From contig CAYYWY010000002.1 of NCBI GenBank assembly GCA_964475485.1, forward strand, positions 18,903-82,902: DNA of 64,000 nt. Direction: 5' to 3'. Both the position numbers and the translations under genes were made by a program. The stretch comes from an uncultured Nitrospiraceae bacterium. Its GTDB lineage: Bacteria; Nitrospirota; Thermodesulfovibrionia; Thermodesulfovibrionales; UBA9159. Of this stretch, positions 835 through 47,104 are shown in pieces; the stretch's first letter is position 1, and every line of letters starts with the position of its first letter. The notes beneath the pieces are model-generated. The model made no database searches and was not told the DNA's origin. It saw only the letters and a program-made list of their open reading frames with translations.

Positions 835-1598
835 GTCTCCTGGAGGTGAGGGAACTGACCAAACGATTTGGAGGGGTAAGGGCTCTTGAAGACGTGAGTT
901 TCAGGGTGAAGGAAGGTTCCATTGTGAGCATCATAGGTCCGAACGGAGCCGGCAAGACGACCCTGTTCAACTGTATCACAGGCCACACGAGGCCTACAAA
1001 AGGGGTTGTTCGTTTCTCCGGCAGGGACATCACTGGAATGCCGCCTCACGCAATCGTGAAGGCGGGGATAGCCCGGACTTTTCAGAACATACGGTTATTC
1101 AGGGAGATGAGCGTCCTCGAAAATGTCCTTGTTTTCAGACATCTGAGGATGCGTTCGGGTCTTCTCAGCATCCTTGCGCAGCGGAGACATTTTCTCAAAG
1201 AGGAGGATGAGGCAAGGTGCTGGGCGCTGGAGTATCTCGGATTGGTGGGCCTCGAAAACGTCGAGGACATACCCGCATATAATCTCCCCTACGGCGACCA
1301 GAGGAGACTCGAAATCGCAAGGGCAATCGCCGCCGAGCCAACGGTCATTCTCCTTGACGAACCTACTGCGGGGATGAATCCGCAGGAGACGGGGGAGATA
1401 ATGGAGATGATCAGGAGACTTCAGAAGCTGGGTAAAACGGTGATACTGATAGAGCACGACATGAGGGTCGTCATGGGGATTTCAGAGACGATCGTCGTTC
1501 TTGACCACGGGGTGAAGATAGCCGAAGGACCACCGGAAGCCATCAGGAACGACCCTATGGTTATAGAGGCATATCTCGGCAGGGGTATCCATGCTTAG
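831..1598 (+). CDS. livG: branched-chain amino acid ABC transporter ATP-binding protein
   Basis: Walker A GPNGAGKTT, signature and Walker B (ILLDEPTAGMNP). LivG-type C-terminal region (DPMVIEAYLG). Confidence 0.9.
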   Translation: MSLLEVRELTKRFGGVRALEDVSFRVKEGSIVSIIGPNGAGKTTLFNCITGHTRPTKGVVRFSGRDITGMPPHAIVKAGIARTFQNIRLFREMSVLENVLVFRHLRMRSGLLSILAQRRHFLKEEDEARCWALEYLGLVGLENVEDIPAYNLPYGDQRRLEIARAIAAEPTVILLDEPTAGMNPQETGEIMEMIRRLQKLGKTVILIEHDMRVVMGISETIVVLDHGVKIAEGPPEAIRNDPMVIEAYLGRGIHA

Positions 1599-2667: not shown

Positions 2668-3503
2668 TGAGCTTTTGGGCCAAAGCGCGCAAGCTCCATA
2701 GATCGAAATTTAAGAAGTTCGGAAAATCTAAGAAGCTGAGGTTTTTCGCTCCCGCATTTTTGCACTTCTGTGTCTCTGTTTTGCTGTCTTTGCTTATGGT
2801 TTCGCCCCTTCTCGCTCTTACTGACAGCGAGATTGCGTCCTTTCAGAAGGAGATCGCAGACAGGCCTCTAGGTGAGAGGATCGCACTATGGGCTGAGCGG
2901 TATGTGGGCACGCCTTATGACCCGGATCCTCTCGGGGAGTATGTGAGAAGAAAGGCGATCGTTGCCGACGACCGTGTGGACTGCATGTATCTCATTTTCA
3001 GGACAGCGGAGCTTGCGATGGGGCGCACACAGGATGAGGCGATTAATATAGCCCTTGAAAAAAGGTTTATAGGCAGGGGCAGATTAAGAGACGGCGTCGT
3101 CGAGAATTATGAAGAGAGGTTTCAGTACGGAGAGGATATGCTCGAGAGCGGCAAATGGGGCGTTGAAATCACAGGGGACTTAGGGGCCTTATCGTATATC
3201 GAAGGATCGAGGGGAAGGGAAAGGGTTGCGATGGTTGCGAAAGAGCAACTGCTCGGGGATTTACGGAGACTTCCCTTGAGAAGCGGGGACTTCATCTTCT
3301 TCGTCAAGCACCCGGAAAATAGGATAAGCGGCGAGATAGTCGGTCACATAGGGATTATAAAGACGGAGGGCGGTACGCCATACCTCATCCATGCCGGCGG
3401 AAGGAAGAACCGCGGGGGGAAAGTAAGAAAGGTGGAGCTTCACGAGTACATAACTTCCATGCCCTTTGCGGGGGTAAGGGTCAGCAGGTTTCTTACCCCT
3501 TGA
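2667..3503 (+). CDS. exported or membrane-anchored protein, DUF1460/NlpC-P60-like amidase fold (tentative)
   Basis: ATG 2667 overlaps the acyP stop (ctgATGa). N-terminal basic region plus a hydrophobic helix. Contains YVGTPYDPDPLGE, DCMYLIFRTAELA and GDFIFF...GHIGII. The listed 2568 start lies inside acyP and is unlikely. Confidence 0.5.
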   Translation: MSFWAKARKLHRSKFKKFGKSKKLRFFAPAFLHFCVSVLLSLLMVSPLLALTDSEIASFQKEIADRPLGERIALWAERYVGTPYDPDPLGEYVRRKAIVADDRVDCMYLIFRTAELAMGRTQDEAINIALEKRFIGRGRLRDGVVENYEERFQYGEDMLESGKWGVEITGDLGALSYIEGSRGRERVAMVAKEQLLGDLRRLPLRSGDFIFFVKHPENRISGEIVGHIGIIKTEGGTPYLIHAGGRKNRGGKVRKVELHEYITSMPFAGVRVSRFLTP

Positions 3504-3702
3504 TTTTTTGCATGATCTCAAGGAACTGGGTCTTGAATTCAGGGTGAGCCCTCCCCATAAAGAGCTTGAGTCCCTTCAGTTCAAGCCCGATGTCTTCCAG
3601 GTCTTTCATGGCTGTGTGAATCTCCTCGAGACTCTCAGTGATAGTGGCCAGTTCCTTTTCGATGAGAGCGATCTTTTCCTTAAAATGTCTTTCCTCTTTC
3701 AT
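3493..3702 (-). CDS. small coiled-coil hypothetical protein (69 aa)
   Basis: Charged helical ORF 36 nt downstream of the bS22-like gene on the same strand. No recognisable family. Confidence 0.4.
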   Translation of the reverse strand: MKEERHFKEKIALIEKELATITESLEEIHTAMKDLEDIGLELKGLKLFMGRAHPEFKTQFLEIMQKIKG

Positions 3703-3738
3703 GAAATGCCCCCTTAAGGGTCACTGACTCTGACTTTA

Positions 3739-3834
3739 TTATTTGTTTCTTCTCTGGTGCTTTGTCTTCCTGAGCAGTTTCTTGTGTTTGTGCTTGCTCA
3801 TCTTCTTCTTGCGCCATTTTACCACGCTGCCCAC
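3739..3834 (-). CDS. 31-aa highly basic protein, bS22 / AURKAIP1-COX24-like small ribosomal protein
   Basis: Own translation of the minus strand: GTG start 3834-3832 preceded by GGAGGTGAGTGT, giving MGSVVKWRKKKMSKHKHKKLLRKTKHQRRNK, stop TAA 3741-3739. Matches the MGSV.K.R.K.M.K.KH.KLL..T..QRR pattern of bS22. Below the 60-aa cut-off of the ORF track. Confidence 0.75.
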   Translation of the reverse strand: MGSVVKWRKKKMSKHKHKKLLRKTKHQRRNK

Positions 3835-3915
3835 ACACTCACCTCCTTTTTTATAGTTCTCAGCCTTCGGCAATCACCTTTCGGCACAGACGGATCGGTA
3901 GCTGACCGCTGAAAG

Positions 3916-6900
3916 CTAACAGCTTCTTGAGCGGCTATGTTCCATAGCCTGGTTCATGAACGCCTCGAGCTGTATCTCCGTAGTCGGCGACTCGGTTCCG
4001 TCGTACGACACGCTTATGCAGGGTACCCCGTAATCCCTGCTCAGTCCGTGCATAAGGGACGTCACTATCGTTCCGGGCATGCACCCGAAGGGCATCGCGT
4101 TGATAATGCCCGACGCGCCCTTCTCTATAAGGTCGATGCTTTTCCCTATGCTCAGGATCGCCTCCCCCTCGAAGGAATCGTGCAGGTACGGGGAAGCCTT
4201 CCTCAGTATCTCTCTTGTATCCGGCTCCTCCAGGGTCCTGAGGAACCCCCTGAAATGCCTTCCGAGACGGTGTTCCGTCTTCTTCTGAAAAAACTTCTTC
4301 AGGAGAATTTGAATGATAACAGACCTGTCTTTTTTAATCAAGGCCTTTCTCAGGGCCATCAGGTTCACGTAGTATATCCATTCCTCCATCGGCGCGAGCC
4401 AGACCTGCCCTCCAAGGGCCTCCACTTTTCTTACTAGGTCCTCATTTGAGAACTTGTGGCTCCTGACAAATATCTCTCCCACAATGCCGATGAGCGGTCT
4501 GTCTTCCTTATGTCTCGGTAGATCCTCGAAGTCCCTGCGCATTTTTCCGAGGAGAACATCGAGACTGCCGTCCGCGCCCCTGAGCGACGCATACATCTTC
4601 TCCCGGTAGTCCCTGTAAAGGGCATCTGTCGAACCTTTCTCTTTCTCGTATGGTCTTGTTTCGTGGAGACATTTGGTGAGGAGTTCGTAGGCAACGATTC
4701 CTTCCCATGCGAAGGAGGAGAAGTCTTTTCCCACGATACCCAGTTCCCGGTAGAAGTTGGAATCCTGGTTGGGCGAGAATATCGGGACATTCCGAAGGCC
4801 GAGTCCTTCAAGGATCATCCTGTGAAAGACGTTGTATTGACCGAACCTGCAGGGCCCCGATCCTGAAGGCATGAAGAACGCGGATTCATCCGGCCTGAAA
4901 TCGGGAGAAAGCACCTTCTTCAGCATATCCCCTGTCGTGACGGTGCAGGGGAAGCATTCTTTCCCCGAGACATAGCGCCTCCCTATGTCAACGGCCTCCT
5001 TATCCGATTCCGGCAACACCTCCGAAGGAATGCCGCATCTCTCGAACGCGGCGGCAAGGGCAAAGGCAGAGTCTGTCATACGGGGGATGAAGACGGTACG
5101 TTCTGAATGGCGAGCGGATATTAAGGAATGCGGGGAGAATCTCTTTTCAGCCGTAACACGTAACGCGTCTTCCCGTCCATGCCTGTCCGGCAGGCAGGCG
5201 GTAGGCAGGTAACGAGTTATGGTATTTTCGATGCTGTCGAGGAATGCCTCGCAACGCGTGATCGCCCCAGCGTCGGCGCTGTGTTCGTCTATCTCGATCT
5301 GCAGGTAGGGCTTTTCTTCCATCTCTTCCCTCAGGAACTTGAGGATGAATGAGTCAGGACCGCAGGAGAAATTGCTGATATACAAGGCATACAGGTTAGG
5401 GTTTTCCCTTATGAAACGCGCTGCCTTCAGTATCCTCTGGCCGGACCTCCAGTACATATTGGGCCATCTGTCTTTTATCTTCATAGCCGTCAAGGGGATA
5501 AAGTCCATAGGTATTGCAGGCACGCCAAGGTCGGAGAGCTTCCCGGGGATATTGAGATTCATGCCGCTGTCAAAGGCATTATACGGCCTTCCAATAATAA
5601 TGACGGTCCTCTCCTTCAGGGAGGAGAGGACCTCGGCCCCCTTCGACTTTATGGCGGCGGAGAACTCCTCCTGGGCCTTGCCGGCCTTCTTTAAGGCCTT
5701 TAATACGTCCCTCTTCTTCACCCCCAAAGGCTTGAGAGACCGCGCTATCTCGGCGATAAGGACATCGTCCCCGCTCCTGAGGTTCACCACAGGCGCAAGG
5801 ATCCTTGCTTCCGGATGGGCTACTTTCGCTGCATAGGGTATTGTCTGCGTGAGCGGACACGCAAATCCTTTTTCGAACTCATCATCGAGGGTGTTCATAT
5901 TGATGAAGCTCGGAATAAGAAGGGTCTTAACCCCTTTATTAACGAGGTGCTTTATGTGACCGTGAGCCACCTTGACAGGGAAGCAGGTATCGGCAAGAAC
6001 GCTTTCTGAACCGATGTTGACGATTTCCTTGTTGGTCTTCGGGGAAACCTCCACGGCGAAACCCAGCTCCCAGAGAAGAGTAGTCCAGAAGGGAAGATAG
6101 TCATGAAGAAAGAAGATGTACGGGATGCCGATCTTGAGCGGCGAGTGACGGGTGGCGAGCGACGAGGCCCTGTTTCTATGCTTTGAATCGTCATTTGTTA
6201 CTTGCAACCTGTTGCTGTATTCGTTGTGCGCCTTCCAGAGCATCTCCTCTCTGAAGGCGAAGAGGTCCGGAACGGACGAAGGCCCTTTCTTCTTCACGTC
6301 ATACTTCTCGCACCTGCCCCCGTAAAAGAGGTATCCTTCCTCGCCCTCTATCTTCACCCTGTTTATTTCGCAGACATTGGGGCATCCCCTGCATTCGAAG
6401 GACGAGACTTCGTAACGCCTCTCCGACAGTTCAAATCCCTTGAATTTGGTCGTTAGTCGATAGTGGGCAGCCGTCAGCGGAGCATCAGTCGCACACCTGC
6501 CTTCTATTTGACTATCGATTATTGGCTGTTGACTGTCGACCGACGACCGGTTTCTCATATACCTCATCGCTATCAGAGCCATCCCTATCGCTCCCGTCAC
6601 GTCATGGTGCGGAGGCACCGTTATTGTTCTGTTAAGGTACTTCTCGAAGGCGGCAACGACGGACTTATTAAAGGCTACCCCTCCCTGGAAGAAGATGTTT
6701 TCACCTATCGGCTTTCCAGCCACCACCTTGTTGATGTAGTTCTGGACAATGGAGTATGCCAGGCCGGCAAGGAGGTCGTCCCTGCCGGCTCCTTTCTGGA
6801 GGTTTGCCATGAGTGAATTCTCCATAAAGACCGTGCAACGCTCCCCAAGCCTGCAGGGGTTTTCAGAGGAAAAGGCGCAGGACGCAAACTCGTTTTTTAC

Positions 6901-8376
6901 CGAGATGCTGAGTTTCTCCGCCTGCTCTTCGAGAAAGCTTCCTGTGCCTGCAGCGCAGGCCTTGTTCATCTCGAAATCCACGACTACGCCGTCCCTTAAG
7001 GAAATATACTTAGAGTCCTGCCCCCCGATCTCGAAAATCGTATCGACGTTTCTGTCGATGAATGCGGCGGCAGTCGCCTGGGCTGTAATCTCGTTCTTTA
7101 CGATGTCTGCACCCACGTAGTCGGCGATCATGTAACGGCCTGATCCTGTCGTTCCCACGCCCATTATCTTTACCGTGTCTCCAAGCTCGGTCCCTATCTC
7201 CCTGAGTCCCTGGTTCACTGCCTCGATCGGCCTCCCCGCAGTCATCAGGTACCTCTTCGCGAGGAGACGGCCATCTTCGTCGATCACAGCAAGGTTTGTG
7301 CTTATGGACCCGATATCGATGCCCAGAAAAGCCTTAGTTTTGAGTTCTGAGTTTTGAGTCCTGAGTTCTTCATCTTCCAGCTTTGAACTTTGAACCTTAA
7401 ACCTTGAACTGTCTTCAAGGTGCCGCTCAAAGAAGTCATCGCCTTTTGAGACTAGGGGTTTATGACCATAGTCCGAGTACTGCATAGAATCGATAAGGGC
7501 ACTGAGTCTTTCGAGATCGAACCTCTGTATAAGGCCCTCGTCCATGCCTTTCATTGCAGCCCCCAACGCTCCCATGAGGGCGAAATCGCCGGGAACAAAG
7601 AGCTGCCCGAAGCCGAAGACTTCTCTGAACGCCCTCACCATCCCCTTGTTGGCGGCAACGCCGCCGTGGAAGGAGACCGGCTCCTCGATGACCCTCCCTC
7701 TCACGATAGAGCCCTTGAAGTTCCGGGCCACGGCAAAACATAGCCCCGCAACGATATCTTCCACAGGGGTCGCAATCTGTTGAAGGTGTATCATGTCGGA
7801 TTTTGCAAAGACGCTGCATCTGCCGGCGATCCGCGAAGGTTTGGATTTCAACGCAAGGTCGCTGAACTCTTCTATTGAAAGCCTGAGCCTTTCAGCCTGC
7901 TGGTCAAGAAACGATCCGGTACCTGCCGCGCATACGGAGTTCATCGAAAAGTCCCTGATACCGTTTCTGCCGAGGACGATGAGTTTCGAATCCTCGCCTC
8001 CCAGCTCAATGATCGTCTTTATGTGGGGGAAGAGCTTTCTCGTGGCATATGTCTGCGCAACCAGTTCATTCACGAACCCTATGCCGAGGGAAGCCGCGAT
8101 CAGCCTTCCGGAGGAACCTGTGACGGAGAGGGAGTGATCCTCGTTCAGTGAAGGGTGATGAGCGACGAGTGACGAGTTCCGGTCGGTCGGCCTGTCTCCA
8201 AGCTCATCATTTGTTACTTGTAACTTGTTACTCGTTACTGCCTCAAGGAGTTCAAGGGCCACCCTTAAGGGATGTCCCTTGTGACGCCTGTAATAGCCCT
8301 CGAGCTTGCGGCCGGCTTCGTCGAGGACGACAACCTTTACACTCACAGATCCTGCGTCAAGGCCGATGAATCTCAT
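3916..8376 (-). CDS. acyl-CoA dehydratase activase-related fusion protein: two BcrAD/BadFG-type ATPase domains plus activase-associated and 2-hydroxyacyl-CoA dehydratase D-component-like domains
   Basis: 1486 aa. Two copies of the GIDxGS...GGxDSK...CAAGTGSFL acetate/sugar-kinase-type ATPase motif set (res 1-320 and 350-620). The C-terminal half is typical of CoA-substrate-specific enzyme activase fusions. Confidence 0.8.
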   Translation of the reverse strand: MRFIGLDAGSVSVKVVVLDEAGRKLEGYYRRHKGHPLRVALELLEAVTSNKLQVTNDELGDRPTDRNSSLVAHHPSLNEDHSLSVTGSSGRLIAASLGIGFVNELVAQTYATRKLFPHIKTIIELGGEDSKLIVLGRNGIRDFSMNSVCAAGTGSFLDQQAERLRLSIEEFSDLALKSKPSRIAGRCSVFAKSDMIHLQQIATPVEDIVAGLCFAVARNFKGSIVRGRVIEEPVSFHGGVAANKGMVRAFREVFGFGQLFVPGDFALMGALGAAMKGMDEGLIQRFDLERLSALIDSMQYSDYGHKPLVSKGDDFFERHLEDSSRFKVQSSKLEDEELRTQNSELKTKAFLGIDIGSISTNLAVIDEDGRLLAKRYLMTAGRPIEAVNQGLREIGTELGDTVKIMGVGTTGSGRYMIADYVGADIVKNEITAQATAAAFIDRNVDTIFEIGGQDSKYISLRDGVVVDFEMNKACAAGTGSFLEEQAEKLSISVKNEFASCAFSSENPCRLGERCTVFMENSLMANLQKGAGRDDLLAGLAYSIVQNYINKVVAGKPIGENIFFQGGVAFNKSVVAAFEKYLNRTITVPPHHDVTGAIGMALIAMRYMRNRSSVDSQQPIIDSQIEGRCATDAPLTAAHYRLTTKFKGFELSERRYEVSSFECRGCPNVCEINRVKIEGEEGYLFYGGRCEKYDVKKKGPSSVPDLFAFREEMLWKAHNEYSNRLQVTNDDSKHRNRASSLATRHSPLKIGIPYIFFLHDYLPFWTTLLWELGFAVEVSPKTNKEIVNIGSESVLADTCFPVKVAHGHIKHLVNKGVKTLLIPSFINMNTLDDEFEKGFACPLTQTIPYAAKVAHPEARILAPVVNLRSGDDVLIAEIARSLKPLGVKKRDVLKALKKAGKAQEEFSAAIKSKGAEVLSSLKERTVIIIGRPYNAFDSGMNLNIPGKLSDLGVPAIPMDFIPLTAMKIKDRWPNMYWRSGQRILKAARFIRENPNLYALYISNFSCGPDSFILKFLREEMEEKPYLQIEIDEHSADAGAITRCEAFLDSIENTITRYLPTACLPDRHGREDALRVTAEKRFSPHSLISARHSERTVFIPRMTDSAFALAAAFERCGIPSEVLPESDKEAVDIGRRYVSGKECFPCTVTTGDMLKKVLSPDFRPDESAFFMPSGSGPCRFGQYNVFHRMILEGLGLRNVPIFSPNQDSNFYRELGIVGKDFSSFAWEGIVAYELLTKCLHETRPYEKEKGSTDALYRDYREKMYASLRGADGSLDVLLGKMRRDFEDLPRHKEDRPLIGIVGEIFVRSHKFSNEDLVRKVEALGGQVWLAPMEEWIYYVNLMALRKALIKKDRSVIIQILLKKFFQKKTEHRLGRHFRGFLRTLEEPDTREILRKASPYLHDSFEGEAILSIGKSIDLIEKGASGIINAMPFGCMPGTIVTSLMHGLSRDYGVPCISVSYDGTESPTTEIQLEAFMNQAMEHSRSRSC
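6136..6215. repeat. dispersed repeat family A, copy 2 (in-frame inside the activase gene)
   Basis: gcgagtgacggg...gcgagcgacgagg plus atttgttacttgc (6193-6205). Encodes NRLQVTNDDSKHRNRASSLATRHSPLK. Confidence 0.65.
7338..7410. repeat. microsatellite-like 7-8-mer tracts inside the inter-domain linker of the activase gene
   Basis: tgagttc/tgagttt/tgagtcc/tgagttc (7338-7368) and ttgaact/ttgaacc/ttaaacc/ttgaact (7381-7410). Encodes SRFKVQSSKLEDEELRTQNSELKTK. Confidence 0.65.
8157..8240. repeat. dispersed repeat family A, copy 1 (in-frame inside the activase gene)
   Basis: Cores gtgacgagttc (8169-8179) and atttgttacttgt (8209-8221). Translated on the minus strand as AVTSNKLQVTNDELGDRPTDRNSSLVAHH. 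Confidence 0.7.
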
Positions 8377-12445: not shown

Positions 12446-14767
12446 ATGAAAGGGTGGATACTGAAGGAACGATGGAGGATCATCCCCATAGGGGTCCTCA
12501 TCACTGCAGTCCCCCTCCTGGGGCTCTCGGCATTCGTGAATCTCCAGTTGACCGCCGCGCTCAAGGACAGGCTGATAAAGGAAACACGATGGTTTTCGAC
12601 CGTAGCGGCTCATCATGTTCAGGAAAGATTAAGGAGTGATATAAACTACGGCAGGGCTTACGCAACAAGGCCTTATTTACTGGAAGGGTTAAGGAAAGGC
12701 GATAAAAAAGAATTGGACAGGCACCTTAAAGATATTGTTGATAATTCCTATACGTTAGAGAGGGCATTTATCACAAACCCTGCGGGAATACAACTCGCCA
12801 ATTATCCCGAAACACCGGAAACCCTCGGAAAGGACTTTTCAGACAGGGACTGGTACAAAGGGGTCACAAAGAACCGGGCGCCTTATGTCTCTGAGTTCTA
12901 TATGAGAATGGCAAAACCCCAGAGGTATCTTTTCGCGATAGCAATCCCCATGAGATTGGAAAGGAACGTAATAGGTATCCTTGTAATGCAGCCGAAAGAG
13001 GATTACATAAAAGAAGCCCTGGGCGGCATAGATATCGGCAAAGGACATATCTACGTAGTGGACAGGAAGGGACATCTTATCTATCACCAGGATTTTATAG
13101 TTGATAGAATTGTGGATTTTTCGCAGGTTCCGATAGTCCAGAAGGTGCTGAAAGGACGGGACGGTGTTGAAGAGATAATCGATCCGACAGACAAGGGGCC
13201 TGTTTTCTCGGCTTATCACCCTGTCAGGGAATGGGGGTGGGGAGTCGTTGTGGACAAGCCGGCGGAGCTCGTCCTTGCCCCTGTAAGAAGAGTCACGTTG
13301 TCGCTTGCCGGAATTACGGTGCTCATGCTGCTCCTCGGAGGTTTTTTTGCGTATAGATGGGCGGAATTGCTCGCAGCGTCAAAAAAGGCGGAGGAGGCAT
13401 TGCAGAAGAAATCCGAGGAGCTTGATCGCTATTTCACGAGCAGCCTAGATCTTCTTTGTATCGCAGACACCGACGGGTATTTCCGCCGTCTCAACCCGGA
13501 ATGGGAAAAGGCACTCGGCTATCCGGTCTGTGAACTGGAAGGCCGGCGTTTCCTTGAGTTTGTTCACCCCGACGATGTCAAATCCACCCTCGAAGCGGTG
13601 GCAAGCCTGTCATCTCATCAAAAGGAAGTTGCAAACTTCATCAACCGCTACAGGTGCAAAGACGGCTCTTACCGCTGGCTCGAATGGCGGTCGCATCCGG
13701 AAGGAAAGCTCATTTATGCAACTGCCCGTGACATCACCGAGCGCAGAAAACTCGAAGACGAGATTCTTATGCGGTCTGCTCAACTGGAGAAGGCCAACAG
13801 CGAACTTCATTCGATGAATGCGGAGCTTCAGGCAATGAACGAGGAGCTGCAGACCCAGCAGAAGGAACTTCAGGAGGCAAATGCAAGACTTGCCGAGGTT
13901 TCTATGGCAAAGTCGGACTTTCTTGCCAATATGAGCCATGAACTCAGGACGCCTTTGAACTCAATCATCGGTTTTTCGGAGGTTCTCAAGGACGAACTCT
14001 ACGGGAAGCTGAATGAGAAACAGCGGGAATATGTGGACGATATTATGGGAAGCGGCAGGCATCTGCTTGATCTCATCAACGATATCCTGGACCTCGCCAA
14101 GGTGGAGTCGGGCAAAATGGAGCTGGAGGCGAGTGTTTTTTCTCTGAACAGGGTCCTTCATACCTCAATGACGATGATGAAAGAGAAGGCAACGAAGCAC
14201 TGCATCGCCATGAACCTCGAGATCGAGGAAGGCGCTGATACCGAAATAGAGGCGGATGAGAGGAAGTTCAAGCAGATCATGTTCAATCTCCTCAGTAACG
14301 CGGTGAAGTTCACTCCTGACGGGGGGAGCGTGAGCGTGAAGGCGCGGAGGTTGTCATTGCGAGGCGCCATGCCTGCCGGCAGGCAGGAGGCCGAAGCAAT
14401 TTCAAGAGGCGAGATTCCTCGCTTCGCTCGGAATGAGGATCTTGTCGGCGATTTCGTTGAAGTTTCTGTCTCAGACACCGGCATCGGGATTAAAGCAGAG
14501 GACATCCCGAAGCTCTTCAAGGAGTTCACCCAGCTCGAATCGCCCTATACAAAGGATTACGAAGGGGCCGGTCTCGGCCTTGCACTCACGAAGAAGCTCG
14601 TCGAGCTCCACGGCGGCACGATATGGGTCGAGAGCGAGCCGGACAAAGGCAGCAGGTTCGCTTTCACAATCCCGGTGAAGCAGCCGTTAAAGCCTGAAAG
14701 CCTCCACGTTGTGGAAAAGACGCGAAGATGTGGATGCGGCGGTCGCAGCAGCAAAAGAAGCGTATAA
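12446..14767 (+). CDS. sensor histidine kinase: TM, double-Cache periplasmic domain, TM, PAS, coiled coil, HisKA, HATPase_c
   Basis: Cache-type DRDWYK region, PAS (FVHPDD...RYRCKDGSYRWLEW), H-box MSHELRTPLNS, N box NAVKFTP, G boxes DTGIGI / GAGLGLAL. Confidence 0.9.
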   Translation: MKGWILKERWRIIPIGVLITAVPLLGLSAFVNLQLTAALKDRLIKETRWFSTVAAHHVQERLRSDINYGRAYATRPYLLEGLRKGDKKELDRHLKDIVDNSYTLERAFITNPAGIQLANYPETPETLGKDFSDRDWYKGVTKNRAPYVSEFYMRMAKPQRYLFAIAIPMRLERNVIGILVMQPKEDYIKEALGGIDIGKGHIYVVDRKGHLIYHQDFIVDRIVDFSQVPIVQKVLKGRDGVEEIIDPTDKGPVFSAYHPVREWGWGVVVDKPAELVLAPVRRVTLSLAGITVLMLLLGGFFAYRWAELLAASKKAEEALQKKSEELDRYFTSSLDLLCIADTDGYFRRLNPEWEKALGYPVCELEGRRFLEFVHPDDVKSTLEAVASLSSHQKEVANFINRYRCKDGSYRWLEWRSHPEGKLIYATARDITERRKLEDEILMRSAQLEKANSELHSMNAELQAMNEELQTQQKELQEANARLAEVSMAKSDFLANMSHELRTPLNSIIGFSEVLKDELYGKLNEKQREYVDDIMGSGRHLLDLINDILDLAKVESGKMELEASVFSLNRVLHTSMTMMKEKATKHCIAMNLEIEEGADTEIEADERKFKQIMFNLLSNAVKFTPDGGSVSVKARRLSLRGAMPAGRQEAEAISRGEIPRFARNEDLVGDFVEVSVSDTGIGIKAEDIPKLFKEFTQLESPYTKDYEGAGLGLALTKKLVELHGGTIWVESEPDKGSRFAFTIPVKQPLKPESLHVVEKTRRCGCGGRSSKRSV
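14353..14437. repeat. dispersed palindromic repeat family B, copy inside the HATPase_c domain of the kinase (in-frame)
   Basis: gtcattgcgag...gcctgccggcaggcagg...cgaagcaat...cgcttcgctcggaatgag. Reverse-complement relative of the element at 24838-24930. Encodes SLRGAMPAGRQEAEAISRGEIPRFARNED. Confidence 0.7.
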
Positions 14768-15576: not shown

Positions 15577-16845
15577 ATGAAGAAAGTGCTTGTTGTGGAT
15601 GATGAGGATTCGGTGAGGAACACCCTCGGCGAAGTCCTCGAAAGTTACGGCTTTCAAGCGCTTCTTTCCTCCGACGGCGAGGAGGCAGTCGCCGCATTTG
15701 CCAGAGAAAGACCGGACGCTGTGCTACTTGACCTTCTAATGCCAGGGATGGCCGGCATGGAGACATTGCAGGAGCTGAGGAAGATCGACAGCAGCGTCCC
15801 CGTGATCATGATCAGCGCCCACGGAGATATTCCCAAGGCGGTGGAGGCGATAAAGCGGGGAGCATATGATTTTGTCAGTAAGCCGCCGCATTACAGCCTT
15901 CTCATCCTGACCATCAAGAGGGCAGTCGAAAAATCCGACTTGATGAAGAAATATAATAATGTCCGGGGAAATCTGCAGGCGCTGAACGAAGAACTGAAGA
16001 AACGCATCGGGCAGCTCGAAGAAGCGAAGCTGCTTGCCGAGGCGGCAAGCATGACAAAATCCGAATTCCTTGCGAACATGAGCCACGAACTCACGACCCC
16101 TCTTAATTCCATAATCGGATTCTCGCAGCTTCTTCAGGACGAGCTTTACGGTCATCTGAACGAGAAGCAGAAGGAGTACGTTGCAGAGATTCTGACCAGC
16201 GGCAAGCACCTGCTTGGACTGATTACGGGCATGCTCGACCTCTCGAAGATCGAGTCGGGAGCGATGGAGCTGAGACTGAGCACGTTTCTCCTGAGGGATG
16301 TCCTGAGGTCGTCGCTGATCATGTTCAGCGAGGAATCCATCCGGCGCAACCTCGACCTCAAACTCGAAATAGCGCAGGACGCCGATATTGAGATAGAGGC
16401 TGATTCTGGGAAATTGACCCAGATTATGTTCAACCTCCTCGGTAACGCGGTGAAGTTCACTCCCGACGGGGGCAGCGTCAGCGTGAAGGTGCGCTTAGCT
16501 CACGGCTCTGGGCGCATGGCTCACAGCGGCAAAGATGCAGACCGCGAACTGTCGGCCATGAACTATGAACTCGACCGGGATTCCATCGAAATTTCGGTCG
16601 TTGACACCGGTATCGGCATTCGGGCTGAAGATATCCCGCTGCTCTTTCATGAGTTCAAACAGCTCGAATCGCCGTATACAAAGACGCGTGATGGAATCGG
16701 AATCGGACTTGTTTTGGCAAAGAGGCTGGTGGAGCTCCACGGGGGAAAGATTTGCGTGGCCAGTGAAAGCGGGAAGGGCTCGCAATTTACGTTTGCAATT
16801 CCGACGACTCAACATAAGAAGAAGGAGGAGGTGCGAAAGGGGTGA
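15577..16845 (+). CDS. hybrid receiver + HisKA/HATPase_c histidine kinase
   Basis: N-terminal REC paralogous to that of the 9761 gene. The transmitter is paralogous to the 12446 kinase ([26 protein letters not shown] nearly identical at the DNA level). Confidence 0.9.
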
Positions 16846-18394: not shown

Positions 18395-19696
18395 TCATCG
18401 TGTGATGCGTACGTCAAGGAGATGTGTGGAACACGAGATGCATGGGTCGTAGGCCCTTATGGCCCGTTCGATGCCCTTTTTGAGGGACGCCGTGTCGAGG
18501 TGAGTATTGAGCTGCACATAATGCCTGAGTTCTGCTTCCATCATGGAAAGGTTTTGAGAAGTGGGAGGGATAAGTCCGCAGTGGAGCACCTTGCCCTCGT
18601 TGTTCAGTTCGTATCTGTGGATAAGGATGCCTCTCGGGGCCTCGGTTATCCATACCGCCTCGCCGGCCCTGGGCTCGAAGGCAACGGAGGGTCTATCCGG
18701 TTTCTCATAATCTTTGATGATCCGCAGCGCCTCGTGAAACGCGTACGCCATCTCTACCGATCTTGCGACAATGCTCATCTGCGTGTTCGTAATGGGGAGC
18801 GTCACCGGGGATCCTTCGATCCTCTCTCTGATTTCTGAAGGTAATCTCTCGTAGTTAAGGTTGAGCCGTGCTATCGGGCCGACGAGGTACGGGCTCAGGG
18901 AGGAGTTCCTCTTGATCCCGGAGTATAGGGCCGTGGAGTCCCCCACCTGGTATTCCTGCAGAATTTTCATAAAGCCGTCCATCGACTCATCAAGTCCCCT
19001 GTTCGAGATGACACGACCTTCGTTCATGGGATATTCCCCGGCATGACTCAGCGAAACATACTCCACGTCGCGGACGTTGTCATTAAAGGGCAAACGCGAC
19101 GCCCATTCTATCTCCGTGAGAGACTCCTCGTATGCGCGTTGAAGTTCGCCGCGAATGGAGGCGAGCTCCCTTTTCTCCGGGACTCTGTAAAATCCTCCGA
19201 TCCTGACCGACACAGGATGTACCGACCTTCCGCCGAGGATGGACAGTATCCTGTTGCCGAGTCGCTTAAAGCCCAGACCCCTTCTTGCAACGGGAATATA
19301 CTCTCTGTCGGACCAGGCGCTTTCAATCCCGTAAAAGTCGGGTCCGTGAAGGAGATAGACGTGCAATGCATGGCTCTCTATCCACTCCCCTGCGTACAGG
19401 AGTCTCCTCAGGTCCCTTACCGGCTTTTCTATCTCGATTCCGAAAATCTTTTCCATGGCATGGACGGAACTCATCTGGTAAGCTACCGGGCATATACCGC
19501 AGATTCGTGCCGTGAAGTCAATCACATCCGAGCACGGCCTTCCTCTGACGAGGGATTCGAAAAATCTCGGCGCCTCGAAGATCCTCATACGGAGTCCCGT
19601 CAGCTTGCCATCCGCGATTTCTACGGAAACCCCTCCTTCTCCCTCGACCCTCGCTAAGTAGTCGATCTTGATGACCTTATTCACCTTGTCCGTCAC
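18395..19696 (-). CDS. cytoplasmic group-3b NiFe hydrogenase large (alpha) subunit
   Basis: RICGICPVAY N-terminal motif and DPCISCSTH C-terminal motif, 433 aa. Operon order beta-gamma-delta-alpha as in sulfhydrogenases. Confidence 0.85.
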   Translation of the reverse strand: MTDKVNKVIKIDYLARVEGEGGVSVEIADGKLTGLRMRIFEAPRFFESLVRGRPCSDVIDFTARICGICPVAYQMSSVHAMEKIFGIEIEKPVRDLRRLLYAGEWIESHALHVYLLHGPDFYGIESAWSDREYIPVARRGLGFKRLGNRILSILGGRSVHPVSVRIGGFYRVPEKRELASIRGELQRAYEESLTEIEWASRLPFNDNVRDVEYVSLSHAGEYPMNEGRVISNRGLDESMDGFMKILQEYQVGDSTALYSGIKRNSSLSPYLVGPIARLNLNYERLPSEIRERIEGSPVTLPITNTQMSIVARSVEMAYAFHEALRIIKDYEKPDRPSVAFEPRAGEAVWITEAPRGILIHRYELNNEGKVLHCGLIPPTSQNLSMMEAELRHYVQLNTHLDTASLKKGIERAIRAYDPCISCSTHLLDVRITR

Positions 19697-26544: not shown

Positions 26545-27200
26545 GGATAATCGTTTTCCCAGCCGTATTTCCCAACAAGAGGAACGAAAACGCACGGGGT
26601 GTGATATTCCCTCCTTAGCCGCCCTTTCTCTTTCCTCGCCCTGATGAGCTGCTGGGAGAAACGGTCGCCTACAGGGGCTACGATGATCCCTCCCTCTGCA
26701 AGTTGCTCGATGAGGGGGCGGGGCAAGTCTGGAGAGCCAGCTGTAATCAGTATCCTGTCGAAGGGTGCTGCCTCCGGCCAGCCCAGGGTGCCGTCTCCTG
26801 TTCTAAGGCGGATGTCGGTATACCCTAGGCTTCTGAGTCGCTCTGCCGCCTTTTCCGATAAGGACTGAAAGCGCTCGATCGTATATACTTCTCTTGAGAG
26901 TTCGGCAAGTATTGCGGCCTGATATCCTGAGCCGGTCCCTATCTCAAGAACCTTCTCAGTCCATCTAAGTTCGAGAAGTTCGGTCATGACCGCTACCATG
27001 TAAGGTTGTGAAATGGTCTGGTCTTCTCCAACAGGAAGGGCCATGTCGTCGTACGCCCTGTGCCACATCGATTCGCCTATAAAGAGGTGCCTCGGGACCT
27101 TTCTCATGGCCTCAAGGACGCGGGTATCCTTGATCCCGCGCGGGATAAGCTGGGTGTCCACCATAAGGTTCCTGAGTCTCCGGAAATCCTCTTTGTCCAT
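26541..27200 (-). CDS. pcm: protein-L-isoaspartate O-methyltransferase
   Basis: TISQPYMVAVMTELL, VLEIGTGSGYQAAILA, APFDRILITAG. Start taken at MDKEDF (27200). Confidence 0.9.
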   Translation of the reverse strand: MDKEDFRRLRNLMVDTQLIPRGIKDTRVLEAMRKVPRHLFIGESMWHRAYDDMALPVGEDQTISQPYMVAVMTELLELRWTEKVLEIGTGSGYQAAILAELSREVYTIERFQSLSEKAAERLRSLGYTDIRLRTGDGTLGWPEAAPFDRILITAGSPDLPRPLIEQLAEGGIIVAPVGDRFSQQLIRARKEKGRLRREYHTPCVFVPLVGKYGWENDYP

Positions 27201-44377: not shown

Positions 44378-47020
44378 ATGACAAGCCGTGAGATACGAAC
44401 CCTATTCCTCGACTATTTCCGGAGCAGGGGCCATGAGGCCGTAAGGAGCTCCCCCCTCATTCCCAAGGGCGACCCCACGTTGCTCTTCACCAACGCCGGC
44501 ATGGTCCAGTTCAAGTCGGTGTTCCTGGGTGAAGAGACAAGGCCTTACAAGAGGGCTGTCAGCTGCCAGAAATGCCTGCGGGCCGGTGGAAAACACAGCG
44601 ATATAGAAAATGTCGGTCATACCGCGAGACATCACACCTTCTTTGAGATGCTGGGGAACTTCTCCTTTGGCGACTACTTCAAGAAAGATGCCATAGCCTT
44701 TGCGTGGGAACTCCTCACCGCTACGTTCGGTCTGCCAAAGGAGAACCTCTGGGCATCCGTGTTCGAAAACGATGATGAAGCGGCAGGAATATGGAAGGAT
44801 CTCACGGATATCCCTGAGCAGAGGATAGTGAGACTGGGGGCAAAGGACAATTTCTGGCAGATGGGGGATACGGGGCCATGCGGACCATGCTCCGAGATCA
44901 TCATCGACCAGGGCCCGGAGGTCGGCTGCGGAAGGGATGAATGCACTGTCGGTTGTGATTGTGACCGATATCTCGAGATATGGAATCTTGTCTTCATGCA
45001 GTACAACCGCGACGAACAGGGCAACCTCACCCCCTTGCCCAGACCTAGCATCGATACCGGCATGGGACTCGAAAGGATAGCTGCAGTTAAGCAGGGAAAG
45101 CTCAACAATTTCGATACGGATATATTCTCCCCCATAATATCAGCCATCACGCACGAGACAGGCTCTTCCTACGGGAGGGATTCCGCAACCACCGCGTCCA
45201 TCCGGGTAATCGCAGACCATCTCAGATCCATCGCCTTTCTCCTGTCGGAGGGACTCATGCCGTCAAACGAAGGCAGGGGCTACGTCCTGAGGAGGATCAT
45301 CAGAAGGGCGTCGCGACATGCGAGGATGCTGGGAGTCCATAAACCCGTTCTCTACCGTCTCCTCGATTCAGTATCCGATGCCATGGGCAATGTCTATCCT
45401 GAACTGCTTGAGGAAAGGGAACGGTCGTCCAGAATCCTACTGCTCGAAGAAGAGCGCTTTTCGAAAACTCTGGAACAGGGCATGCAGGTTATGGATGACA
45501 TCATCGCCTCACTGAACAAATCAGGCGGAAAAGTCATTCCAGGGACTGATCTCTTCAGACTCTATGACACCTACGGTTTTCCCCTGGATCTCGCGAGGGA
45601 TATCGCAACAGACAACAACCTACTCATCGACGAGGAAGGTTTCCAGCAGGAGATGGAGATACAGAGAGAGCGGGCAAGGGCATCATGGGTGGGAGAAGAA
45701 GGGGCGGTGGCTTCCATCTACCGTGAGCTTCTCTCTGAAGTGGGAAAGACCGAATTCGTGGGATACGATACCCTTGAGTCGGACTCTGTAATCAAGGCCG
45801 TTCTCAGGGACGGAAAGGCGGTGAAGGAGGTCCGGGCGGGCGAAGAAGCGGAGGTCTTTCTCGACAAGACCCCCTTTTACGGGGAATCGGGAGGTCAGGT
45901 GGGGGATGTCGGAGACATGGCAGGAGATACGTTCAGGGCTTCGGTCGTCGATACAAAGAAGCCGGTGGAGGGACTCCACTCCCATATTGTCACAGTGAAG
46001 GAGGGGACTCTCCGCGTATGGGATAGGGTAAGATGCAGGGTAGATGAGGAAATGCGAAAGGCGACCAAGAGAAACCACACCGCGACCCACCTGCTTCATG
46101 CCAGCCTGAGGACTGTCGTGGGAAACCATGTAAAGCAGGCCGGTTCGCTCGTTTCGCCCTCGCGTCTGCGTTTTGATTTCACGAATTTCTCCGCGCTCGA
46201 GGACTCGGAAATCGCCTCCATAGAAGCCATGGTGAATGAAATAATCCTTGAAAACATCCCCGTGCTCACAACAACAATGGACACAAAGGCCGCTGTCGAG
46301 TCGGGTGCTACCGCGCTCTTTGGAGAAAAATACGGCGATTCAGTCCGGGTCGTGTCAGTTCCGGGTGTCAGTTCCGAACTATGCGGCGGGACCCACTGCA
46401 GGGCAACAGGAGACATAGGTCTCTTTGTTATCCTCTCCGAGGGTAGCGTTGCATCAGGAATCAGGAGGATCGAGGCATTGACCGGCGTTCCGGCAATCCG
46501 GTTTCTGAAAGAGAAATGGGCGGAACTCAAGAAGGTCGGAGAGCTTCTCAAGACGGACCAGGTATACCCCCGCATAGAGAAACTTATTTCAGACCTCAGA
46601 GCGATGGAAAAGGAGCTGGACGGGATGAAGGCAAGGGCAGCCTCAAAGGATTCTTCCTCTATTCTTGAGCGCGCGATGAAGATAGACGACATAACCGTCC
46701 TTTCCCACAGGGTTGACGGCCTTGAGCAAAAAGACCTGAGGGTCCTCGCCGATTCCCTCAGGGACAGGATCGGCTCAGGCATCCTCTTTCTCGCCTCCGT
46801 TAAGGCCGGTCAAGCATCTATGCTCGCGATGGTCACAAGGGATCTCTCCGACAGGTTCAATGCCGGGGAGATACTGAAGCAGGTGGCTGCCATGACCGGA
46901 GGCAGGGGGGGCGGCAAGGCGGAAATGGCCCAGGGAGGCACTGCAAACCTGGAAGGGCTGGACAAGGCATTGCAATCAGTATACGATATAGTTGAAAAGG
47001 CGGTGACAAGTAACAAATAA
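44378..47020 (+). CDS. alaS: alanine--tRNA ligase
   Basis: Start at MTSREIRTLFLDYF. FTNAGMVQFK, HHTFFEMLGN, WNLVFMQYNR, editing-domain HTATHLLH and C-terminal DHHA1. The listed 44261 start overlaps the upstream gene. Confidence 0.95.
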   Translation: MTSREIRTLFLDYFRSRGHEAVRSSPLIPKGDPTLLFTNAGMVQFKSVFLGEETRPYKRAVSCQKCLRAGGKHSDIENVGHTARHHTFFEMLGNFSFGDYFKKDAIAFAWELLTATFGLPKENLWASVFENDDEAAGIWKDLTDIPEQRIVRLGAKDNFWQMGDTGPCGPCSEIIIDQGPEVGCGRDECTVGCDCDRYLEIWNLVFMQYNRDEQGNLTPLPRPSIDTGMGLERIAAVKQGKLNNFDTDIFSPIISAITHETGSSYGRDSATTASIRVIADHLRSIAFLLSEGLMPSNEGRGYVLRRIIRRASRHARMLGVHKPVLYRLLDSVSDAMGNVYPELLEERERSSRILLLEEERFSKTLEQGMQVMDDIIASLNKSGGKVIPGTDLFRLYDTYGFPLDLARDIATDNNLLIDEEGFQQEMEIQRERARASWVGEEGAVASIYRELLSEVGKTEFVGYDTLESDSVIKAVLRDGKAVKEVRAGEEAEVFLDKTPFYGESGGQVGDVGDMAGDTFRASVVDTKKPVEGLHSHIVTVKEGTLRVWDRVRCRVDEEMRKATKRNHTATHLLHASLRTVVGNHVKQAGSLVSPSRLRFDFTNFSALEDSEIASIEAMVNEIILENIPVLTTTMDTKAAVESGATALFGEKYGDSVRVVSVPGVSSELCGGTHCRATGDIGLFVILSEGSVASGIRRIEALTGVPAIRFLKEKWAELKKVGELLKTDQVYPRIEKLISDLRAMEKELDGMKARAASKDSSSILERAMKIDDITVLSHRVDGLEQKDLRVLADSLRDRIGSGILFLASVKAGQASMLAMVTRDLSDRFNAGEILKQVAAMTGGRGGGKAEMAQGGTANLEGLDKALQSVYDIVEKAVTSNK

Positions 47021-47088
47021 CGAGTGCCGAGTTACGGATGCGATTTCTCCCAAATTCCCATTACTCGTTGCTCGAACTCGTCACTTAT
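47003..47088. repeat. dispersed repeat family A, copy 3 (opposite orientation), spanning the alaS stop codon
   Basis: acaagtaacaaat (47006-47018) and gaactcgtcac (47074-47084) are the reverse complements of the cores at 8209-8221 and 8169-8179. It supplies the last alaS codons, AVTSNK-stop. Confidence 0.7.
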
Positions 47089-47104
47089 TCTGAGGAGGTG
47101 CCGC

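Follow-up and report, generated by a model that had tools for sequence, protein, structure and literature searches.

We analysed a window of 64,000 nucleotides from an uncultured Nitrospiraceae bacterium (positions 18,903 to 82,902 of contig CAYYWY010000002.1, assembly GCA_964475485.1), in which a gene for an acyl-CoA dehydratase activase-type protein carries repeated DNA inside its coding sequence. The repeats belong to a dispersed class of hairpins made of 7-nt units (heptamers), copies of which lie, in frame and free of stop codons, at disordered linkers of many conserved proteins, and which turn over rapidly and in a genome-specific manner. The activase loops are one local instance of this lineage-wide repeat class, partly described and poorly understood, which is read through as extra protein loops. 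The reading we prefer, at a probability of about 0.65, is that of a slippage-type selfish repeat tolerated in disordered loops, with no protein-level function indicated.

A reading of the window from its sequence alone had placed a repeat of ~85 nt at two positions within the activase gene, translated without interruption. The two copies are where it put them: the 17-mer CATTTGTTACTTGYAAC is found at 6192-6208 and 8208-8224, and the minus-strand open reading frame (ORF) passes through both without a stop, yielding exactly the two peptides quoted (Table 1). A third copy of the 17-mer, with 2 mismatches, is present between genes at 47003-47019(-), so that the window holds three copies vs 0.00 matches expected from shuffles. 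The right arms of the site-1 and site-4 copies have 29 nt in common at 86% identity, and their left arms have GYGACGAG-type units in common. Loops are unrelated among the three window copies, the likeness being confined to arms of the form (GTRACRA)n ... (TYGTYAC)n. Tandem Repeats Finder (TRF) called the site-1 arms at 27049-27079 and 27113-27141 of contig C2 (window coordinates follow on subtraction of 18902).

An arm consists of 3-5 tandem units of a heptamer centred on GTNAC, i.e. GTNAC plus two bases, and whole elements measure 70-110 nt. Searching the copies by BLAST against the whole 2.6-Mb assembly of the source genome (G000) gave arm-length matches only, of at most 38 nt, at many loci, and across 34 loci there was no conserved loop or terminus, nor were any copies similar over their full length. 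The repeat, called family A, is therefore a hairpin of heptamer arrays and not the discrete, fixed element of ~85 nt that had been described. Nor are only two segments of the gene of this kind. Five hypervariable linkers of the activase, S1 to S5, were defined on an alignment of 92 orthologues; in this genome S1 to S4 are built of heptamers, and S5 probably is too.

Genome counts were compared with an order-3 Markov shuffle of G000, arrays being selected by TRF score. At scores of at least 36, the genome contains 85 period-7 arrays (1 in the shuffle), 16 of period 6 (0 in the shuffle) and 7 of period 8 (7 in the shuffle); at scores of at least 44, 41 period-7 arrays are left, against 0. Arrays with at least three in-phase GTNAC units number 36, against 0 in the shuffle, and they are both intergenic and intragenic, so that family A does have the further genomic copies expected of a dispersed repeat. 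Several unit families coexist in G000 (ACGAGTG, AAGTCAG, AACGCGT, AAAGTTC and others). The arrays are short, none exceeding 5.7 units, and their mean match is 88%. Taking as deep-coding any array lying more than 45 codons inside an ORF, the 125 period-7 arrays of G000 divide into 59 deep-coding, 34 gene-end and 32 intergenic ones. Their density is 3.06 per 100 kb in gene interiors vs 9.86 elsewhere, a three-fold depletion inside genes that fits the dispersed, non-coding type of repeat first proposed; the gene-interior density is still ~5x the shuffle expectation of ~0.65 per 100 kb (derived from 17 shuffle arrays). Selection against slippage-prone tracts in genes was considered and rejected, purity and copy number being equal in coding and non-coding arrays.

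The preference for linkers is clear from the 92 orthologous coding sequences. TRF detected 156 period-7 arrays in them vs 3 of period 6, and 176 of the 188 arrays of period 7, 14 or 21 fall within the five linkers, which hold 6.7% of the bases. Site 2 has 51 arrays, in 29 orthologues, site 3 has 39, in 21 orthologues, and site 5 has 34, in 19 orthologues. The copies had been said to sit where homologous activases are short, and this holds for both: the site-1 segment exceeds the orthologue median by 27 aa, and at site 4 the linker is also longer here than the median (Table 1).

Their structural placement was also correctly foreseen, one copy lying in a loop of the first ATPase domain and the other directly before DUF2229. 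The activase has two stretches matching the ASKHA-type BcrAD_BadFG ATPase domain (PF01869 x2, E 6e-73), DUF2229 (PF09989, residues 748-960) and a weak HGD-D-like match (PF06050); it matches the solved structures 9gai_D, 4eht and 1hux with E from 1e-30 to 2e-23, and orthologues were found in 30 of 31 related genomes. Site 1 lies in ATPase domain 1, in the alpha1-beta4 loop, flanked by helix 36-48 and strand 81-86, and 9gai, 4eht and 1hux align on either side of S1 but not across it. In AlphaFold models built with orthologue alignments (mean pLDDT, the predicted local distance difference test, of 79 and 77), pLDDT is below 50 at residues 51-75, 322-343, 616-639, 734-743 and 1054-1088; the repeat segments are thus predicted to be disordered. 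At site 1 and in the second half of site 4 (734-743), these are low-confidence stretches within otherwise confident models, in keeping with fold-compatible loops; the first part of site 4 (residues 721-730) is modelled as an extension of the preceding helix with pLDDT ~78. In the C-terminal model, pLDDT is also below 50 over the first 99 residues of the fragment (598-696), a stretch spanning S3 and a Cys-rich segment, the latter being there cut away from its preceding domain.

We compared the elements between close relatives. The orthologue P0002 (93% identical protein, Logan assembly; gene L093, Logan SRR32929650 contig, 3001-7377) lies in the same neighbourhood (UbiA, HisKA_3 kinase, response regulator). 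It has an in-frame loss of 66 nt at S1, namely the loop and second arm, and keeps the first arm and S2-S5. In P0003 (80% identical), the S1 element is complete and likewise 108 nt long, with the first (5') arm homogenised to (GTCACAA)4. The S1 element being present in P0003 and partly lost in P0002, the S1 copy was therefore inherited within the clade, evolving through homogenisation of its units and in-frame deletion, and is no recent insertion in this genome. The site-4 copy can likewise be aligned with the site-4 elements of P0002 and P0004.

Turnover is most visible between P0003 and P0004, which are 89.5% identical overall, yet have different unit families in all five linkers; P0004 has a GTNACGC hairpin, read as the peptide ALCVTRN...VTRHASR, in three linkers. 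The activase L002 of genome G001 has the GTNACGC hairpin (ALCVTRN...VTRHASR) three times, at S2, S3 and S4. Scoring as a match any two units with at most one mismatch, in any rotation or strand, units matched in 37% of pairs of different linkers of one genome, in 16% of pairs between genomes and in 17.5% of pairs of the same linker in different genomes, figures that are indicative only since the genomes are related. Given the difference within the 89.5% identical pair and the matches within genomes, unit families therefore track genomes rather than sites, and their turnover is much faster than that of the protein. The number of GTNAC x4 arrays also differs among genomes: 14 in G000, 29 and 67 in two genomes of one neighbouring genus, 22 in one of another family and 0-2 in most other relatives.

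The activase is not the only host. Ten array-bearing ORFs of G000 were translated, and family-A peptides were found in frame in conserved enzymes, the genes concerned being CarB, PurL, a P-type ATPase, a MoeA-like protein, YchF, BioA, LeuRS and CarA. The peptides NSSLVTRHSSL and VTSNKLQVTN recur: CarB has SVTGNELQAAS...NSSLVTHHSS, the P-type ATPase LVTSNELRVTS...LVTRYPSL, YchF NSSLVTRHSSL and BioA NSLLVTRHSSL. The CarB insert amounts to a clean 34 aa, placed between residues 549 and 550 of E. coli CarB (1bxr), with well conserved flanks, and the same junction in related genomes contains unrelated fillers, 55-96 aa lying between two fixed anchors. The CarB junction (G000 C3:11249-14581; relatives L100-L128) behaves as a hotspot, with a different filler of 10-50 aa in every relative examined. 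PurL (G000 C24:22283-26386) and the MoeA-like gene (C39:4703-5914) have 3-4 separate in-frame arrays each, of different unit families, among them CTGACTT-type units read as RSQKSEV.

Because a 7-nt period visits the three frames every 21 nt, a coding array must be stop-free in all sense frames. Among deep-coding arrays, 45/66 have no stop in any of the three sense frames, vs 20/66 for the antisense strand. The first arm of S1, GTAACGA GTAACAA GTTACAA GTAACAA, stays open only because its third unit has TTA instead of TAA.

Table 1. Repeat copies and host gene in the window (coordinates of the 64,000-nt window), with the corresponding activase linkers and their lengths among 92 orthologues.
Feature	Window position	Strand	Linker residues	Length here (aa)	Orthologue median (aa)	Orthologue range (aa)	Remarks
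Host activase gene	3916..8376	-					1486-aa ORF; acyl-CoA dehydratase activase-type; two BcrAD_BadFG ATPase domains, DUF2229, HGD-D-like C-terminus
Site-1 copy (S1)	8134..8241	-	49-81	33	6	0-48	GTNAC heptamer hairpin; peptide A46-H81; arms 8147-8177 and 8211-8239; loop unconserved
Site-2 linker (S2)	7332..7410	-	320-345	25	24.5	10-82	Between the two ATPase domains; other heptamer hairpin (TGAGTTY)n / (TTGAACY)n; TRF scores 58 and 39
Site-3 linker (S3)	6454..6546	-	611-641	31	15.5	1-73	After ATPase domain 2; heptamer tract of TTGACTG/TCGACCG type; period 7 read from sequence
Site-4 copy (S4)	6133..6213	-	718-745	27	14	6-49	Degenerate GTNAC arms; peptide N722-K748; directly N-terminal to DUF2229
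Site-5 linker (S5)	5107..5211	-	1056-1090				Two adjacent variable blocks; probable heptamer tracts: CCTGCCT units, GCGTTACGTGTTAC; no TRF call in this genome
Intergenic copy	46986..47095	-					Same GTNAC family; between two + strand genes

The hairpins are genuine, though modest. Folded on the + strand, the site-1 copy reaches -38 kcal/mol (z -2.06) and the site-4 copy -34.5 kcal/mol (z -2.01); the intergenic copy, on the - strand, reaches -33.2 kcal/mol (z -3.46), 0/200 shuffles being equally stable. These three folds are all on the G/U-rich strand. On the activase mRNA strand, neither copy is more stable than its shuffles (z -0.32 and +0.65), and in folds including 70-nt flanks the flanking coding sequence dominates. 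Over the orthologues, antisense folds better than sense in 71/86 array-bearing linkers, and control segments show the opposite; this strand asymmetry of folding arises because the sense strand is A+C-rich (58%). Relative to composition-matched shuffles, linkers have an excess stability of -6.4 and -7.0 kcal/mol on the two strands, which are equal (p = 0.23). A strand polarity due to intrinsic orientation, or to selection against structure in the mRNA, was rejected on these grounds: shuffles keep the asymmetry, and the excess is the same on both strands. No Rfam family matched at E <=1.

Under the selfish-repeat reading, arrays would arise and turn over fast by replication slippage, by template switching between arms or by conversion between copies. 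A dedicated transposase would be less likely than these, because full-length copies and defined ends are lacking and the counts of Y1_Tnp transposase homologues do not correlate with those of arrays. Which unit families occur varies between genomes, and arrays would persist where they are harmless, mostly between genes. To survive within a gene, an array would need a total length that is a multiple of three, a coding strand free of stops, so that the sense strand would be poor in T and G, and a location in a disordered loop or where two domains join. The activase offers five permissive linkers, all five filled by repeats of the heptamer class (S5 probably). There the repeat is predicted to be translated as low-complexity filler, judging from the open frame in 92/92 orthologues, and the segments would be functionally neutral, without a specific role in the protein.

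Several points weigh against this reading. No gain event with a matching empty site was caught among the compared orthologues, so that the insertion of a ready-made element may be an alternative to slippage or conversion. At site 4, both arms change in concert between G000 and P0004, which, on the aligned sequences, could be compensatory change, and the hairpin excess of ~6.5 kcal/mol on both strands may reflect some selection for structure. The array counts across orthologues are non-independent, the orthologues being phylogenetically related, and the coding and non-coding classes of arrays rest on crude longest-ORF gene calls (89.6% coding).

Ready-made hairpins might instead have been copied in by a trans-acting transposase, as for a classical non-autonomous transposon of the type of miniature inverted-repeat transposable elements (MITE) or Rickettsia palindromic elements (RPE), with only in-frame loop insertions surviving. 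We consider this unlikely. It would fit with the genome-specific unit families and the presence of the same family in several linkers of one gene, with the clean CarB insert relative to the E. coli enzyme, with arms that are inverted repeats, and with the Y1_Tnp homologues present in the genome. However, MITE copies should resemble each other from end to end, and here no two copies have a common loop or full-length similarity, BLAST matches stop at the arms (<=38 nt), and the loci compared have no defined termini. Arm units also homogenise in place, as in P0003. G001 has 29 GTNAC arrays and no Y1_Tnp match, and G002 has 34 Y1_Tnp matches and no arrays. Repetitive extragenic palindromes (REP) and bacterial interspersed mosaic elements (BIME) are short imperfect palindromes mobilised by REP-associated tyrosine (RAYT, or Y1) transposases, REPs being extragenic by definition. 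The hairpins resemble them as short imperfect palindromes abundant between genes, but differ in having no conserved REP consensus, no repeat-flanked RAYT gene and no correlation with Y1_Tnp counts. Mobilisation of the RAYT/IS200 type was rejected, as counts of the Y1_Tnp family, the only one considered, do not follow those of GTNAC arrays across genomes. The Y1_Tnp (IS200/RAYT-type) homologues of G000 are at C65:910-1242 and C20:40110-40424; one is broken by three stop codons and the second is weak (E 2.9e-5).

The other alternatives give the repeat a role or deny its existence. Recruitment, in which selection would favour the repeat peptides as flexible tethers that need a certain length between activase domains, appears improbable. 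In its favour, some spacer is kept at sites 2-5 in every orthologue, part of site 4 is modelled as a helix extension, and a residue count on the alignment gives 67% conservation of the site-1 peptide between G000 and P0003. Against it, site 1 is missing or no longer than 6 aa in half of the orthologues, and the 93%-identical relative deleted 22 aa of it. In addition, linker sequences are unrelated between 89.5%-identical orthologues, the same peptides are found in unrelated enzymes, and model confidence is low throughout the segments. The sequence-only reading had left the choice between tolerated and recruited; predicted disorder and rapid turnover argue for tolerated, and against recruited. 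It is more improbable still that the repeat functions at the level of the nucleic acid, through translational pause hairpins between domains, antisense RNA structures or frameshift-prone contingency tracts. Hairpins more stable than shuffles, the better antisense folding and the frame shift caused by slippage of a 7-base unit would speak for it, but the strand asymmetry vanishes under base-composition control (p = 0.23), the copies do no better than shuffles on the mRNA strand, and Rfam gave no family match. Moreover, the arrays, of at most 5.7 units and in essential housekeeping genes, are unlike phase-variable contingency loci, in which a long pure tract of variable length in the population switches a dispensable or surface gene. 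We give hardly any credence to the idea that there is no DNA repeat at all, only ancestral low-complexity protein sequence with a chance resemblance. The site-1 peptide common to the 80%-identical orthologue is in its favour; against it, a copy exists between genes, GTNAC arrays are 36 vs 0 expected, the likeness is at the level of DNA units in all three frames, and the segment is absent from most orthologues. The genome-wide array counts refute it.

A bolder proposal, which we hold only tentatively and as rather doubtful, is that in Thermodesulfovibrionia an active, transposase-independent process writes heptamer-array hairpins, specific to each genome, wherever a site permits. The writer may be slippage templated by hairpins, or a repair polymerase that adds 7-nt units. 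In that case, the process would produce and replace most of the linker sequence between domains in their proteins, at a pace far above that of the flanking domains, and protein linkers would evolve by a mutational mechanism of its own kind, distinct from ordinary selfish DNA.

Among known systems, RPEs are ~100-150 bp long, with a full-length consensus per family, and are dispersed palindromes found between genes and, in frame, in many unrelated metabolic or housekeeping genes, where they are translated into additional segments at fold-compatible positions (Ogata et al. 2000; summarised in PMC10969869). The heptamer hairpins have all the traits of this functional class, being multi-copy, able to form hairpins, and in frame in unrelated genes at fold-compatible loops. 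They are not an RPE family proper, as they have no full-length consensus: only arms are in common, loops are unrelated, elements measure 70-110 nt, and their sequences do not resemble those of RPEs. The host is also different, a free-living member of the Nitrospirota. Geobacter metallireducens has multicopy, intragenic elements of four heptanucleotides, which were interpreted either as binding sites or as RNA with a regulatory role (Aklujkar et al. 2009, PMC2700814). Their unit sequences differ from those found here, and that study contains no analysis of in-frame translation, pairing of two arrays, disordered linkers or turnover among orthologues (PMC2700814). The cyanobacterial short tandemly repeated repetitive (STRR) sequences and the TAACTGA and GGGAATC repeats of Beggiatoaceae and Xanthomonas are overwhelmingly intergenic and under-represented in coding regions, and the orientation of those within ORFs is set by stop codons, present in all three frames one way (PMC4679880, PMC4692102). 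The heptamer hairpins share with them a genome-wide excess of tandem 7-nt units and an occasional placement at protein ends or between modules, but here ~45% of arrays are found well within ORFs, in most cases as inverted pairs. The arrays belong with heptanucleotide simple-sequence repeats in general: 7-nt units in at least 3 copies, an excess over neighbouring periods, several families, and both intergenic and intragenic locations. The closest known systems are RPEs, for the way the hairpins work, and the G. metallireducens heptanucleotide elements; in their construction, the hairpins are closest to heptanucleotide repeats.

No new function or kind of system is revealed by these results. In this lineage, a non-coding-type repeat class encodes the variable linkers of a large conserved enzyme as well as loops in core enzymes such as CarB and PurL, with consequences that include longer proteins, broken alignments, spurious "lineage-specific inserts", and misled annotation and structure prediction. 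With 92 orthologues, five permissive sites and fast replacement of families, the activase is a natural system for studying the origin of heptamers and the tolerance of proteins to filler.

Further observations concern the intergenic copy and other parts of the genome. The upstream 919-aa + strand ORF extends into the intergenic copy, the first arm of which overlaps its stop codon (47018-47020), so that the last residues and the stop of this ORF are repeat-encoded. The copy ends ~15 nt short of a GGAGG Shine-Dalgarno sequence and an ATG that belong to the next + strand gene. Elsewhere in G000, a 132-aa ORF (C1:93025-93423; L129 1435-1833) gives a sub-threshold match to 23S_rRNA_IVP (PF05635, four-helix-bundle), with no heptamer arrays flanking it; the ORF preceding it presumably resembles the end of a restriction-modification specificity subunit. 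Lastly, the window contains a direct repeat of 142 nt at 79% identity (14205-14346 and 16352-16493, 2147 nt apart), accompanied by shorter matches in the same register (13938/16085 and 14586/16715), which probably reflects two tandem paralogous genes.

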